Virus record (IMG/VR): IMGVR_UViG_2713896779_000023
Length of the DNA: 9,351 bases
Source: a virus
Taxonomy: Duplodnaviria; Heunggongvirae; Uroviricota; Caudoviricetes
Strand: one strand, 5' to 3'
Under the pieces are notes generated by a model. That model saw only the letters and a program-made list of their open reading frames with translations, was not told where the DNA came from and made no database searches. This document shows positions 1,668 through 9,351 of the stretch, one piece after another. The position numbers and the translations under genes were made by a program. Position 1 is the first letter of the stretch; every line of letters starts with the position of its first letter.

Positions 1668-2306
1668 TTAAATATCTTGTTGAATTTTAAAGCATACTCC
1701 CAATATGCAAGATAGATCATCCAGCATAATTGAAGGGTAGCGAGGATTCGTGGGGACTAAAAGAATATCCGGCCCTTCTATCTCCAGTTTGCGAATGACA
1801 GGCGTTGTGGTCCCTTTGGGTAAGGCAAGGACAATATTTCCTGGTTGTACGATTCGATCGGGATCAACAAAAACTGTTGAACCATTTGGGATGGAAACTC
1901 CACCACCAGATGTCGACATACTGTCACTCTCTAGAACAACAGCAAAGGTATTGGCCGGGATTTCTCCGACAAGCTGCACACAAGAGGTTATTGAGGAATT
2001 TTTCATATAATCACTCCAGCTTGCTGCCTGCTGAAGTGATAGTAGCGGAACCGTTTTTATCGGCGGTAAAGATAGATCAAGCGAATCACCTGTATTTAAC
2101 TCTCCTCCATTAAGAAGCCAATTTTCGTTTACTTTCAATATCTTTGCCAGTGAACTTATGTAACGCGAGGACGGCGCTCCTCCACCGTTCATCCATTGAC
2201 TTACGGAGCCTTTTGATGCGCCAGTGGCATTGACAAGGTCTTTGCCTTTCAAGTTTAGCGCATGCATACGTTGGGTTATGCGTTCAGATATTGTTTGCTT
2301 GTTCAT
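1668..2306 (-). CDS. cI-like prophage repressor (N-terminal XRE-type HTH, C-terminal S24 LexA-like autopeptidase)
   Basis: 212-aa ORF. The N-terminus has an HTH pattern (GKDLVNATGASKGSVSQWMNG). The C-terminus has the Ser...Lys signature of S24 peptidases (ESDSMS ... PVIRKL). It is transcribed divergently from a cro-like gene. No SD precedes the ATG at 2306, consistent with a leaderless PRM-type transcript. Confidence 0.85.
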   Translation of the reverse strand: MNKQTISERITQRMHALNLKGKDLVNATGASKGSVSQWMNGGGAPSSRYISSLAKILKVNENWLLNGGELNTGDSLDLSLPPIKTVPLLSLQQAASWSDYMKNSSITSCVQLVGEIPANTFAVVLESDSMSTSGGGVSIPNGSTVFVDPDRIVQPGNIVLALPKGTTTPVIRKLEIEGPDILLVPTNPRYPSIMLDDLSCILGVCFKIQQDI

Positions 2307-2397
2307 GTTTTGATTTTAAAACACAGATGGTTTTGTTTCTTGACTTTCTTTGGTTTTGATTATTAAACTTTTGGCGTTCAGTTTTATGGAGCGACTC
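2307..2397. promoter_or_regulatory. divergent promoter/operator region between the cI-like and cro-like genes
   Basis: Three direct repeats (TGTTTTG at 2306-2312, GGTTTTG at 2329-2335 and 2352-2358) spaced about 23 bp apart. Inverted repeat TGTTTT-N6-AAAACA at 2306-2323. Rightward -35 TTGACT at 2340-2345 with AT-rich -10-like hexamers (TATTAA/TAAACT) at 2361-2369. Leftward -10-like TAAAAT (minus strand, 2318-2313) ends 6 nt before the cI ATG. Confidence 0.5.
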
Positions 2398-5703: not shown

Positions 5704-5927
5704 AAATCCTGTATCAGGATTACGGCCCGGTGGGGCAGGTGGTTATCAGCAGTACTGTAATGGAGTTTCGGAAGCATAACCGTGTGGTGGATGCTGTGCT
5801 GTTAACCTGTCCGGGGATATCGGCGAGTCGTGCAGGTGTGTTTATTATGAAGACGAAATTATATGGCAGTAAGGCGTGGATAAAGAAGGCGTATCGTGTA
5901 GCGTTGCAGGAGGTTAACAGTGAGTGA
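5700..5927 (+). CDS. hypothetical protein (75 aa)
   Basis: GTG start at 5700 overlaps the upstream stop (GTGA), suggesting translational coupling. No recognised motif. Confidence 0.5.
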   Translation: MKILYQDYGPVGQVVISSTVMEFRKHNRVVDAVLLTCPGISASRAGVFIMKTKLYGSKAWIKKAYRVALQEVNSE

Positions 5928-6231
5928 AATTAAAGAAATGCCGGTAGTTCGTGACGGATATGGCTACTGGACACATCCTGAATATGAAAAATTCTGTGAT
6001 GGTCGGGAATATATTTCAACGGAAGAGTTTAACGCCTGGATGGAGGAAAATAATCTTCAATACGTCCTCTGCTTCAGAGATGAAGGATGTGCTGACCTTG
6101 ATGCGTGTGATGCTGATATTTCTGCATGGGAACCGGAACGACCAGAGGGCGATGGCTGGTTTATTGGTTCCATTCATGATACGGAAGATGGCCCGGTTTG
6201 TGTCTGGTTGCGAAATAAGGCTGAAGCATAA
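5920..6231 (+). CDS. hypothetical acidic protein (103 aa)
   Basis: AGGAGG at 5907-5912 lies 7 nt before GTG 5920; overlaps the upstream stop; acidic, Trp-rich; no recognised motif. Confidence 0.6.
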   Translation: MSEIKEMPVVRDGYGYWTHPEYEKFCDGREYISTEEFNAWMEENNLQYVLCFRDEGCADLDACDADISAWEPERPEGDGWFIGSIHDTEDGPVCVWLRNKAEA

Positions 6232-6335
6232 AGGCGATAAACCAACTAACAACTAAATACTGAAGATTTAAATCAGAAACGATTTTTATTAAATCCTTAA
6301 CCGGAGGGATTCCTGCACCCTCAGAACATCAGGAG

Positions 6336-6353
6336 GCCGCCCGAAAGGGCGGT
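6336..6353 (+). promoter_or_regulatory. GC hairpin with GAAA tetraloop placed between the SD and the start codon of the next gene
   Basis: CCGCCC (6337-6342), GAAA loop, GGGCGG (6347-6352). AGGAGG at 6331-6336 and ATG at 6359, so the linear spacing of 22 nt would shrink to a functional distance if the hairpin forms. Confidence 0.4.
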
Positions 6354-6358
6354 AAGAA

Positions 6359-6577
6359 ATGAAACATTATTTAGAAAAAAATTACCCACGAAAGAGCAGA
6401 ACAACAGAGTTTCTGTTTTTCATTCTGTTTATAGTGTTGATGATACCGATATCCCCGCTATTACTGGTCTGGATAATTGGAAGGACATTTGAACCAGTTA
6501 TTGAGCTATATACCGATGTGACATGGGAATCATTCAGCGCACTGCACAATAAAATTAATCCGTATAAGGAAAACTGA
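6359..6577 (+). CDS. small membrane protein (72 aa, one predicted TM helix)
   Basis: Hydrophobic stretch FLFFILFIVLMIPISPLLLVWIIG. The stop is followed 1 nt later by the ATG of the next gene. Confidence 0.5.
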   Translation: MKHYLEKNYPRKSRTTEFLFFILFIVLMIPISPLLLVWIIGRTFEPVIELYTDVTWESFSALHNKINPYKEN

Positions 6578-6578
6578 T

Positions 6579-7136
6579 ATGAGCACTATTACCAGAGAAC
6601 GCGCGGAGATTAAATCATACATCACAGGCTTCCTGAGCGACTCGGCGCACGATAACAAGTCTTCAGACAGCCTGCTGGCTAATGTGTTTCGTATCGCGCT
6701 GGCATCACTGGAAGCAGAGCCGATAGCAATGGTAGTGCCTGATGAAATGGATTTGCTTACCTGCCATCTCGACGGTGTAACTAAAACATATGCTGATGGC
6801 TGGAACGCCTGCCGCGTCGCCATGCTTCAGGCCGGAAACTTTCGGGAAAATAAGAATTCGTCAACCAACAATTTTCGGGAAATCTCGGAAACGTCAACCA
6901 GATCTCCGATAACTCTGGATGGCTGGATAAGCTGTACTGAGCGAATGCCTGAAAAGAGCCAGAACGTGCTTATTTCGATGAATATCGATAGCGAGGCTGG
7001 GCCATTAATATATTCCGCACGCTATCTCGGAGGCACGTTCCGGCGCGGAGGTATAGCAGTTAGTCCGGGTAATGATCTTAGGCAAGCAACCCACTGGATG
7101 TCGCGACCAGAACCGCCGCAGGAGGTGAATCAATGA
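6579..7136 (+). CDS. DUF551-like prophage protein (185 aa)
   Basis: C-terminal pattern DGWIS...ERMPEK...THWMSRPEPP matches my recollection of the DUF551 conserved region. AAGGA precedes the ATG. Contains an internal imperfect tandem duplication. Confidence 0.6.
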   Translation: MSTITRERAEIKSYITGFLSDSAHDNKSSDSLLANVFRIALASLEAEPIAMVVPDEMDLLTCHLDGVTKTYADGWNACRVAMLQAGNFRENKNSSTNNFREISETSTRSPITLDGWISCTERMPEKSQNVLISMNIDSEAGPLIYSARYLGGTFRRGGIAVSPGNDLRQATHWMSRPEPPQEVNQ

Positions 7137-7216: not shown

Positions 7217-7314
7217 AAACGGTTTGCGGGAAAAGGATAGTTAAGTAGAATTGCTGCGGGTGCTTGAGGCTATCTGCCTCGGGCATGAACACCAACGGCA
7301 GATAGAGAAAAGCC

Positions 7315-7364
7315 NNNNNNNNNNNNNNNNNNNNNNNNNNNNNNNNNNNNNNNNNNNNNNNNNN
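7315..7364. other. run of 50 N (masked or unresolved sequence)
   Basis: Literal n characters. Confidence 1.
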
Positions 7365-8072: not shown

Positions 8073-8305
8073 ATGACACAACACATAAAATCCCACAATT
8101 CTGAAGCCGACCCGGAAATTAAGCAGGGGAGGCGTTTTCGTGCGCCTCAGTATGGCTGGTTTCACTATCTGTTCTGTACGATCGATGAGGCAGATATGCT
8201 TCAAGAGGCGTATCTGCGTCGCGGTGTCCGTGTGGAGCGGAGTCTGAACGCTGATCGTCTGACCTGGACCGTTTCTGTATATCTTCCTGTTCGTGCACAT
8301 CTGCC
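8073..8305 (+). CDS. N-terminal fragment of a CDS truncated by the N run; may be the start of the DUF968-like gene
   Basis: GGAG 6 nt before ATG 8073. Protein-like translation MTQHIKSHNSEADPEIKQGRRFRAPQYGWFHYLFCTIDEADMLQEAYLRRGVRVERSLNADRLTWTVSVYLPVRAHL up to the gap edge. Confidence 0.45.
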
Positions 8306-8355
8306 NNNNNNNNNNNNNNNNNNNNNNNNNNNNNNNNNNNNNNNNNNNNNNNNNN
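8306..8355. other. run of 50 N (masked or unresolved sequence)
   Basis: Literal n characters; the frame relation across it is undefined. Confidence 1.
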
Positions 8356-8356
8356 A

Positions 8357-9351
8357 GGTAATGTGCGGGTATTACTTCGACCTGTTCTGGTTCCGGAACT
8401 CGGGCTGGTGGTCCTTAAGCCCGGTCGTGAATCATTGCCAGTTTTTCATCGCGGCAGGGTGCTGGTGGAGCCGGAACCGAAAAACATGCGGGCGCTGCCA
8501 TCTGGAGCGGTTCCTGCTGTTCGCCAGCCGCTGGCGGAAGATAAATCACTGCTGCCATTTTTCAGCGATGAGCGGGTGATTCGTGCAGCTGGCGGCGCTG
8601 GTGCACTGTCTGACTGGTTATTACGTCACGTGAAATCCTGCCAGTGGCCACACGGCGATTATCATCACAGCGAAACCGTTATTCACAGTTACGGTGCTGG
8701 CGCAATGGTGTTGTGCTGGCACTGCGACAACCAGCTGCGCGACCAGACCTCCGAATCACTTGAGCAACTTACTCAACAAAATCTGACAGCCTGGATGATT
8801 GACGTCATACGCCATGTAATGAATGGCACGCAGGAGCGGGAATTATCGCTGGCTGAATTATCCTGGTGGGCAGTCTGCAATCAGGTGGTGGACGCATTAC
8901 CTGAGGCAGTATCGCGTCGTTCTCTGGGATTACCGGCGGAAAAAATCCGCTCCGTATACCGTGAAAGCGACATCATACCGGGAGAACAGACCGCCACCAG
9001 CATACTGAAGCAGCGCACAAAAAATATTGCGCTACCGCCTCACACCCACCAGCAACAGAACCCACCACAGGAAAAGACGGTGGTCAGCATTGCCGTTGAT
9101 CCGGAGTCTCCGGAATCCTTCATGAAACGACCTAAACGTCGCCGCTGGGTAAATGAGAAATACACACGCTGGGTAAAGACACAGCCGTGTGCGTGTTGTG
9201 GTAAGCCAGCGGACGATCCTCATCATCTGATTGGTCATGGTCAGGGTGGAATGGGAACAAAATCCCACGATATTTTCACGCTACCGCTGTGTCGGGAGCA
9301 TCACAACGAGCTTCATGCGGATCCGCTGGCGTTCGAAGAAAAGCATGGTTC
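8357..9351 (+). CDS. DUF968-like protein with C-terminal Cys/His (HNH-like) motif; partial at both ends (gap upstream, window end downstream)
   Basis: Hand translation of the frame starting at 8357 is stop-free to the window end and ends ...RPKRRRWVNEKYTRWVKTQPCACCGKPADDPHHLIGHGQGGMGTKSHDIFTLPLCREHHNELHADPLAFEEKHG. It is missing from the ORF track because it has no in-window stop. The track ORF 8073..8579 continues in the wrong frame after the gap. Confidence 0.7.

Follow-up and report, generated by a model that had tools for sequence, protein, structure and literature searches.

The stretch of DNA analyzed here (the window; 9,351 nucleotides) comes from a lambdoid, Rac/Qin-like prophage of Escherichia coli. 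A cI-like repressor gene on the minus strand lies beside a pR-like promoter, rightward of which are found ydaS/ydaT-like, replication, DUF1627, and DUF977 genes that overlap or abut one another. This run of overlapping early-right-operon genes is closed by an open reading frame (ORF) of 103 amino acids, after which come an untranslated gap of 127 nt (6232-6358), the first long one in the rightward operon, and then a DUF4014 gene, a DUF551-domain gene, hok, and a BOF/YgiW-family gene (Table 1). Promoter and terminator scans around the leader, carried out in two contexts, found none of either. Runs of N, which appear as X in the ORF translations, mask the window at ~1400-1460, 7300-7360, and 8300-8360, one of them next to the hok-like ORF. 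A reading made earlier from the letters of the window (the sequence-only reading) had placed a small membrane protein with coupled genes behind it downstream of the gap, and the gene content agrees: the 72-aa ORF has one long hydrophobic stretch, and the DUF551 gene is probably translationally coupled to DUF4014, because it begins one base past the DUF4014 stop with the sequence AAGGA 9 nt upstream.

Table 1. Features of the early-right region of the prophage, with emphasis on the leader of the DUF4014 gene
Feature	Position	Strand	Remarks
cI-like repressor gene	1668-2306	-	
pR-like promoter	2340-2369		
103-aa ORF (PHROG 1372)	5920-6231	+	function unknown
Conserved portable leader cassette	6288-6358	+	71 nt; 5' domain, Shine-Dalgarno sequence, and hairpin
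Nearly invariant 5' domain	6292-6311	+	AAAUCCUUAACCGGAGGGAUUU
Second stem of the sequence-only reading	6304-6322	+	GAGGG 6304-6308 with CCCUC 6318-6322; 9-nt loop
Shine-Dalgarno sequence AGGAGG	6331-6336	+	-9.7 kcal/mol with the 16S rRNA 3' end; abuts the hairpin
Hairpin	6336-6353	+	6 G-C pairs, G6336:U6353 wobble, and GAAA tetraloop; -14.4 kcal/mol; pair probability ~1.0
A-rich spacer UAAGAA	6353-6358	+	6 nt; no SD-like sequence
DUF4014 gene	6359-6577	+	72 aa; one hydrophobic segment
DUF551-domain gene	6579-7136	+	start 1 nt past the DUF4014 stop

The untranslated gap ends in a strong Shine-Dalgarno (SD) sequence that is separated from the ATG at 6359-6361 by 22 nt (6337-6358), most of which are occupied by a GC-rich hairpin. 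All of the elements on which the sequence-only reading was built, namely AGGAGG, a 6-bp GC stem, a GAAA loop, the ATG, and the 22-nt gap, were recovered where it had placed them. The arms of the stem are CCGCCC (6337-6342) and GGGCGG (6347-6352), the loop occupies 6343-6346, and a G6336:U6353 wobble is a possible seventh stem pair, so that the hairpin has a folding energy of -12.4 kcal/mol with 6 bp and -14.4 kcal/mol with 7 bp. It was present in all minimum-free-energy and centroid folds computed. The segment from 6325 to 6370 folds at -16.4 kcal/mol (z = -4.05), with only 1 of 200 shuffled sequences folding as well, and the expected number of chance matches to the hairpin 16-mer with up to three mismatches is 0.06 per window. 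Between the stem and the ATG, 5 to 6 nt are left. When hybridized with the 3' end of 16S rRNA (ACCUCCUUA), this spacer yields -1.2 kcal/mol, compared with -9.7 kcal/mol for AGGAGG. The 3' arm of the stem, GGGCGG, could pair with the anti-SD sequence at -6.6 kcal/mol but is locked inside the stem.

The stem is followed by UAAGAAAUG on the plus strand and by CCUCCUGAUG on the minus strand. As neither is a U-tract, the hairpin is not an intrinsic (Rho-independent) terminator, and nothing terminator-like was detected between 5800 and 7300 on either strand. A search of Rfam 15 gave no match at gathering thresholds, and a permissive E-value search returned chance-level hits only.

The geometry at this site depends on where translation starts, and the sequence-only reading had allowed that the true start might lie elsewhere. 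The evidence from sequence securely identifies ATG 6359 as the authentic start codon. Upstream of it, the frame is interrupted by the stop codon UAA (6353-6355), the Pfam DUF4014 and PHROG 1832 profiles both align with residues 1 to 72 of the 72-residue product, and nearly all DUF4014 homologues are 72 aa long with a conserved N terminus. Six DUF4014 loci that are devoid of the hairpin use the same ATG, which in these is preceded by an ordinary GGAG 4 to 6 nt upstream and overlaps the stop of the preceding gene. The complete profile coverage and the use of the same ATG by the homologues without a hairpin confirm the assignment.

DUF4014 itself is confined to Escherichia, Shigella, and Salmonella, and a scan of GTDB species representatives returned only two loci (E. 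coli and Shigella). Our literature search found nothing on DUF4014 or on the hairpin 16-mer. About a fifth of the IMG/VR copies of the gene (27 of 122) have A6 in place of the A7 run at 6375-6381 (codons 6 to 8), which truncates the product to 24 to 26 aa; the variant occurs on two allele backgrounds and could reflect recurrent homopolymer slippage, pseudogenization, or sequencing error. Many 54-aa "DUF4014" calls are present in RefSeq.

Initiation sites in which a folded structure lies between the SD sequence and the start codon have been termed noncontiguous or split (PMC7297116). In phage T4, such structures shorten the SD-to-AUG distance from 22 to 5 nt in gene 38 (PMC3014915) and, as outlined in the same article, from 27 to 11 nt in gene 25; mutations that destabilize the intervening structure of either gene lower initiation (PMC3014915, PMC7297116). 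At the site in the window, the distance of the SD from the authentic start likewise exceeds about 13 nt, the stem-loop would cut the spacing to the range of about 5 to 11 nt, and there is no alternative SD at a canonical distance from ATG 6359. When we folded the T4 gene 38 site, which consists of AAGGAG, a GC-rich stem of 8 bp capped by UUCG, 4 nt, and AUG, we obtained -16.7 kcal/mol, against -16.4 kcal/mol for window positions 6325 to 6370. Both sites have a strong SD at the base of a GC-rich tetraloop hairpin, a gap of 22 nt, and 4 to 6 nt between the stem and the AUG. In contrast, their sequences are unrelated, and UUCG on 8 bp in T4 is replaced by GAAA on 6 to 7 bp in the window. The T4 site also serves one gene of a lytic phage and has an experimentally described function, whereas the element in the window is known from its sequence and belongs to a cassette that is repeated before several genes of temperate prophages.

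T4 gene 25 resembles the window in that a hairpin shortens the SD-AUG distance, and its 11 nt equals the upper end of the spacings that we found behind the cassette (that of the antiterminator Q family, described below). The structure in gene 25, which is supported by reporter assays and dimethyl sulfate (DMS) probing (Nivinskas 1999; Malys and Nivinskas 2009, as cited in PMC3014915), is also, according to that summary, conserved among close relatives only, as is the one described here. The gene 25 stem differs from the window stem in being weaker and AU rich (-7.4 kcal/mol for the centroid) and in lying at the overlapping junction of genes 26 and 25.

The leader that carries this hairpin is widely shared, a finding that goes beyond the sequence-only reading. 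In a BLAST search with a 369-nt query around the leader, 2,447 of 5,426 complete E. coli genomes had at least a partial match, with up to six matching places per genome. Many of the matches span only query positions 57 to 130, which correspond to 6288-6361 of the window, and matches from other contexts start at 6288 and stop either at the stem or at the ATG. The Rac and Qin prophages of K-12 do not contain the cassette, so K-12 omics data are unusable for its study. Sampling of IMG/VR anchored on proteins, and therefore independent of the leader sequence, found the SD-hairpin unit in 76 of 82 DUF4014 loci and in 78 of 79 loci of a second family, DUF7167 (154 of 161 overall).

Targeted scans revealed the unit in front of six ORF families with unrelated N termini, in each of which the start codon lies 6 to 11 nt past the stem. 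These are DUF4014 (72 aa; 6 nt), DUF7167 (60 aa; 7 nt), an unannotated ORF of 43 aa beginning MLTLKHFI (8 nt), MTELTKEQ proteins of 135 aa or longer with an ATG or GTG start (8 to 9 nt), MQEIKENI proteins of 158 to 196 aa (9 nt), and the antiterminator Q family (~173 aa; 11 nt). The spacers UAAGAA, UAAUGA, UAGUGAA, AACAGAUA, UAAUGAAAA, and UAACAAAUA hybridize with the anti-SD sequence at -1.2 kcal/mol or more weakly, and in five of the six families the spacer lacks an SD of its own. The spacer of antiterminator Q, UGGAGAUAAUA, has its own GGAG at a normal distance, and the unit can thus sit where the spacing does not need it. A scan of the sampled loci for an SD with an adjacent GC hairpin, 4 to 11 SD-free nucleotides, and the initiation codon of an ORF with 40 aa or more returned the cassette and the T4 gene 38 control; it otherwise gave few hits, which are likely due to chance.

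Several of these loci carry features of their own. The 43-aa ORF (MLTLKHFIDIPTWLAVIAFVK...) lies in the segment 1304-1460 of locus L293 (E. coli GmM062; NZ_CM183653.1), 8 nt past the hairpin variant CCGUCU/GGGCGG; it encodes a hydrophobic segment, has no RefSeq annotation, and was found in ~25 IMG/VR loci. At loci L300 and L301 and at ~26 other IMG/VR loci, the full leader is directly upstream of antiterminator Q (Pfam Phage_antitermQ; E = 2.6e-30), and because of this position the cassette may influence late-gene timing. A putative seventh family (MVTTGYNR) was rejected. At locus L411 (positions 11440 to 11490 of an IMG/VR metagenome contig), an identical 23-mer, CAGGAGGCCGCCCGAAAGGGCGG, with similar flanks (ACATC... 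and ...AATGAAA) forms part of the coding sequence for the conserved N terminus of a P2-like small terminase, where it encodes QEAARKGG and has an in-frame ATG 10 nt downstream. Since alignments with terminase homologues begin at residue 1, the 23-mer is coding there; its presence may be due to chance or gene conversion or may mark an internal start.

The unit occurs in two contexts, one with the full leader and the other with the SD and hairpin alone, 4 nt past the stop of a 70-aa ORF. Similarity between the contexts ends right after the stem, and the mosaic junctions therefore coincide with its 3' edge. At seven loci of a further type, represented by L412, no start codon comes after the hairpin, and convergent genes have been inserted there instead. 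At L412 itself (12055 to 13550), two convergent low-GC ORFs, one of 184 aa that is membrane-like and one of 310 aa, take the place of the downstream genes directly behind the hairpin; the insert looks like an accessory or defense-like module that is joined at the edge of the stem. The unit can also be duplicated within one prophage. Paired direct copies ~1 kb apart precede DUF4014 and DUF7167 at L005 (1504-1524 and 2568-2588) and at L126 (3615 and 4881). Such repeated copies could drive deletions or gene swaps.

We used sequence variation to ask how far pairing in the stem is maintained. The hairpin is 94.6% paired across 37 unique full leaders. A double change from G:C to A:U was observed at a single pair only, in two unique sequences (seven loci), and the same pair has an uncompensated A.C mismatch in seven unique leaders. 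Pairing and covariation in the hairpin did not exceed column shuffles, and neither these nor slide controls showed a significant signal over that expected from sequence identity among the 37 leaders, which come from a narrow family (Escherichia, Shigella, and Salmonella). Changes from G to A, which break a stem pair, are about as frequent as changes from C to U, which keep a wobble, and in a random-mutant test the observed stem substitutions were no less destabilizing than random ones. In the DUF7167 set, the stem shows no extra conservation, its nucleotide diversity (pi, 0.09 to 0.18) being similar to that at third codon positions (0.11), and in the DUF4014 set the stem is invariant, with pi of 0.22 at third codon positions. 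The hairpin retains -11.7 kcal/mol or better in 141 of the 153 sampled loci, destabilized variants being rare (12 of 153), and these frequencies point towards selection. Loop variants GGCA and UAAA occur. Two arguments from variation were abandoned. An early sample had suggested a strand asymmetry in the stem, with C-to-U changes only, and this was dropped since the protein-anchored sample contains G-to-A mismatches too. An apparent compensatory change in the first stem (GAGTG/CACTC) was aligned as a U.U mismatch.

The 5' domain of the leader, at 6292-6311, is its most conserved part and in the DUF7167 set exceeds the SD-proximal hairpin in conservation. It holds an anti-SD-like UCCU (6294-6297) together with an SD-like GGAGGG, and its UCCUUA, which is the same as the terminal six bases at the 16S rRNA 3' end, can pair with GGAGGG or with the real SD. 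The second stem proposed in the sequence-only reading just upstream of the SD exists, with -5.8 kcal/mol on its own, and is seen in short-context folds; it competes with an alternative hairpin of the 5' domain, in which 6292-6298 pairs with 6305-6311 around an AACCGG loop. The two are mutually exclusive, and neither received significant covariation support in the alignment of unique leaders. The alternative fold frees CCUC (6319-6322) to pair with GAGG (6333-6336) within the SD, and the fold of the leader varies with the length of context, the predicted SD partner being either UCCU (6294-6297) or CCUC (6319-6322). For the full leader, folding predicts an SD that is paired ~98% and free ~2% of the time, with an opening cost of 2.4 kcal/mol that is far below the gain from SD:anti-SD pairing. 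According to these models, masking by the 5' domain may act as a mild attenuator or as a switch.

Carried further, these folds suggest that the whole leader (6288-6358) might function in E. coli prophages as a modular riboregulator not described before, one that masks or exposes the SD in two folds, a possibility to which we give a small chance of being right. The decoy SD GGAGGG and two anti-SD-like tracts may drive the toggle in such a model, some factor, upstream translation, or co-transcriptional kinetics may trigger it, and the hairpin-split ribosome binding site may be its context-independent output. If this were true, genes recombined behind the leader, including antiterminator Q, would inherit the same control.

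Three other accounts of the hairpin have to be weighed. It might mainly be an mRNA stability, processing, or insulating element that blocks 3'-5' exonucleases for the upstream segment, defines or protects a processed 5' end by the AU-rich spacer, or acts as a pause site, with its position between SD and AUG tolerated rather than required. Such a role could account for finding a GNRA hairpin of this high stability where a polycistronic operon has its first long untranslated gap, for its retention 12 nt past the stop of the upstream gene in the short context, and also where no start follows (L412) or where a normal SD follows (Q), and for the weak selection on exact pairing. It leaves unexplained, however, why AGGAGG always abuts the stem and why the starts lie 6 to 11 nt past it in six families, five of them without another SD. 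The lack of a U-tract argues against termination, and processing by RNase III would require a longer stem. We consider this account possible but unlikely. A slim chance falls to the view that the leader is a DNA-level boundary sequence for recombination between mosaic modules, with the palindrome and its position being incidental. The loss of similarity directly behind the stem or at the ATG, the presence of at least two copies ~1 kb apart in one prophage, the near identity of the leader between differing flanks, and the insignificant covariation would all fit. Boundary (linker) sequences that provide recombination homology have been discussed for lambdoid phages (Susskind and Botstein 1978 and Clark et al. 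2001, as cited in PMC3029335). As portrayed there, they resemble the cassette in being short, conserved, and noncoding, in being shared by different modules, and in having mosaic junctions at their edge; the cassette differs in having a full ribosome-binding-site anatomy with an embedded stable hairpin. A linker would need no strong SD fused to a tetraloop hairpin of -14 kcal/mol, nor would it hold every downstream start at 6 to 11 nt, and the rarity of destabilized stems (12 of 153 loci) is not accounted for. A boundary role is nevertheless compatible with a split initiation site and is probably true as well.

The GAAA-capped stem also invites comparison with an operator for an RNA-binding protein, either a boxB-like site for an N-type antiterminator or the site of a translational repressor. 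Lambda boxB, which is found on an early phage transcript, consists of a short GC stem and a GNRA-type loop, and the hairpin in the window shares this general shape, lies in a nin-like region (in some prophages just upstream of antiterminator Q), and is conserved in sequence and not in pairing alone. The window hairpin differs from boxB in having a true tetraloop, not a pentaloop, and in forming one unit with an SD and a start codon. A search for boxA near 6300-6336 on the plus strand was negative, and the hairpin is located ~4 kb downstream of the pR-like promoter, after the replication genes. None of the eight window proteins scanned matches the N family, the first leftward gene being DUF1391. 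The absence of an Rfam match and the occurrence of the GGCA and UAAA loops likewise speak against an operator, which we regard as very unlikely. A lambda-type nut site in particular was rejected on the basis of the missing boxA, the lack of an N-family match among these proteins, and the wrong operon position.

On balance, we think that 6331-6361 is probably a split (noncontiguous) translation initiation region of the T4 gene 38 type, a judgment that draws on sequence features and on analogy. In this mechanism, the 3' end of 16S rRNA would be bound by AGGAGG, and the GAAA-capped hairpin, which starts at the very next base, would stay folded and loop out 16 to 18 nt, which would bring the SD to an effective distance of 5 to 6 nt from AUG 6359 instead of 22. 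DUF4014 translation would thereby initiate de novo past the 127-nt untranslated gap of the early-right operon, with the DUF551 gene following by coupling. The sequence-only reading is upheld in part, and its main claim, that the hairpin brings a distant SD to ATG 6359, is the best supported of the accounts considered. The confirmed start, the lack of an SD in the spacer, the match with the geometry of T4 gene 38, and the reuse of the unit argue for this claim. Against it stand the insignificant covariation, the normal SD that follows the hairpin in the antiterminator Q family, the L412-type loci with a hairpin and no start, and the SD being mostly paired in predictions for the full leader. The anatomy, the start codon, the conservation and reuse of the unit, and the geometric match with T4 gene 38 are observed; we infer that the hairpin remains folded on the ribosome and that efficient initiation requires it. 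By analogy, the element is probably a further example of a known mechanism rather than a new one.

The best reading of the leader as a whole is that of a split ribosome binding site that doubles as a recombination linker. In E. coli prophages of the Rac/Qin-like and Stx kinds, the segment at 6288-6358 would be both a portable cassette for initiation and a stretch of homology for recombination, so that different genes could be plugged in just 3' of the stem. It may work before many genes because the always-folded hairpin separates an AU-rich start region from upstream sequence, and the cassette is possibly a natural "insulated" ribosome binding site that could be of use in synthetic biology.

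Very few split ribosome binding sites have been studied experimentally, chiefly those of T4 genes 38 and 25. If the interpretation is correct, the cassette, which is carried by ~45% of the complete E. coli genomes, O157:H7 among them, and by Stx phages, would be a widespread natural example, and the mechanism would not be a T-even oddity. Start-codon predictors that need an SD 5 to 10 nt upstream are expected to score the cassette starts poorly. For phage evolution, the cassette offers a concrete conserved boundary sequence at mosaic junctions. HNH endonuclease genes were observed directly 3' of cassette-led genes at L294 (1679-2044) and L295 (1792-2157), with the Stx phage ArgO145 among the carriers.
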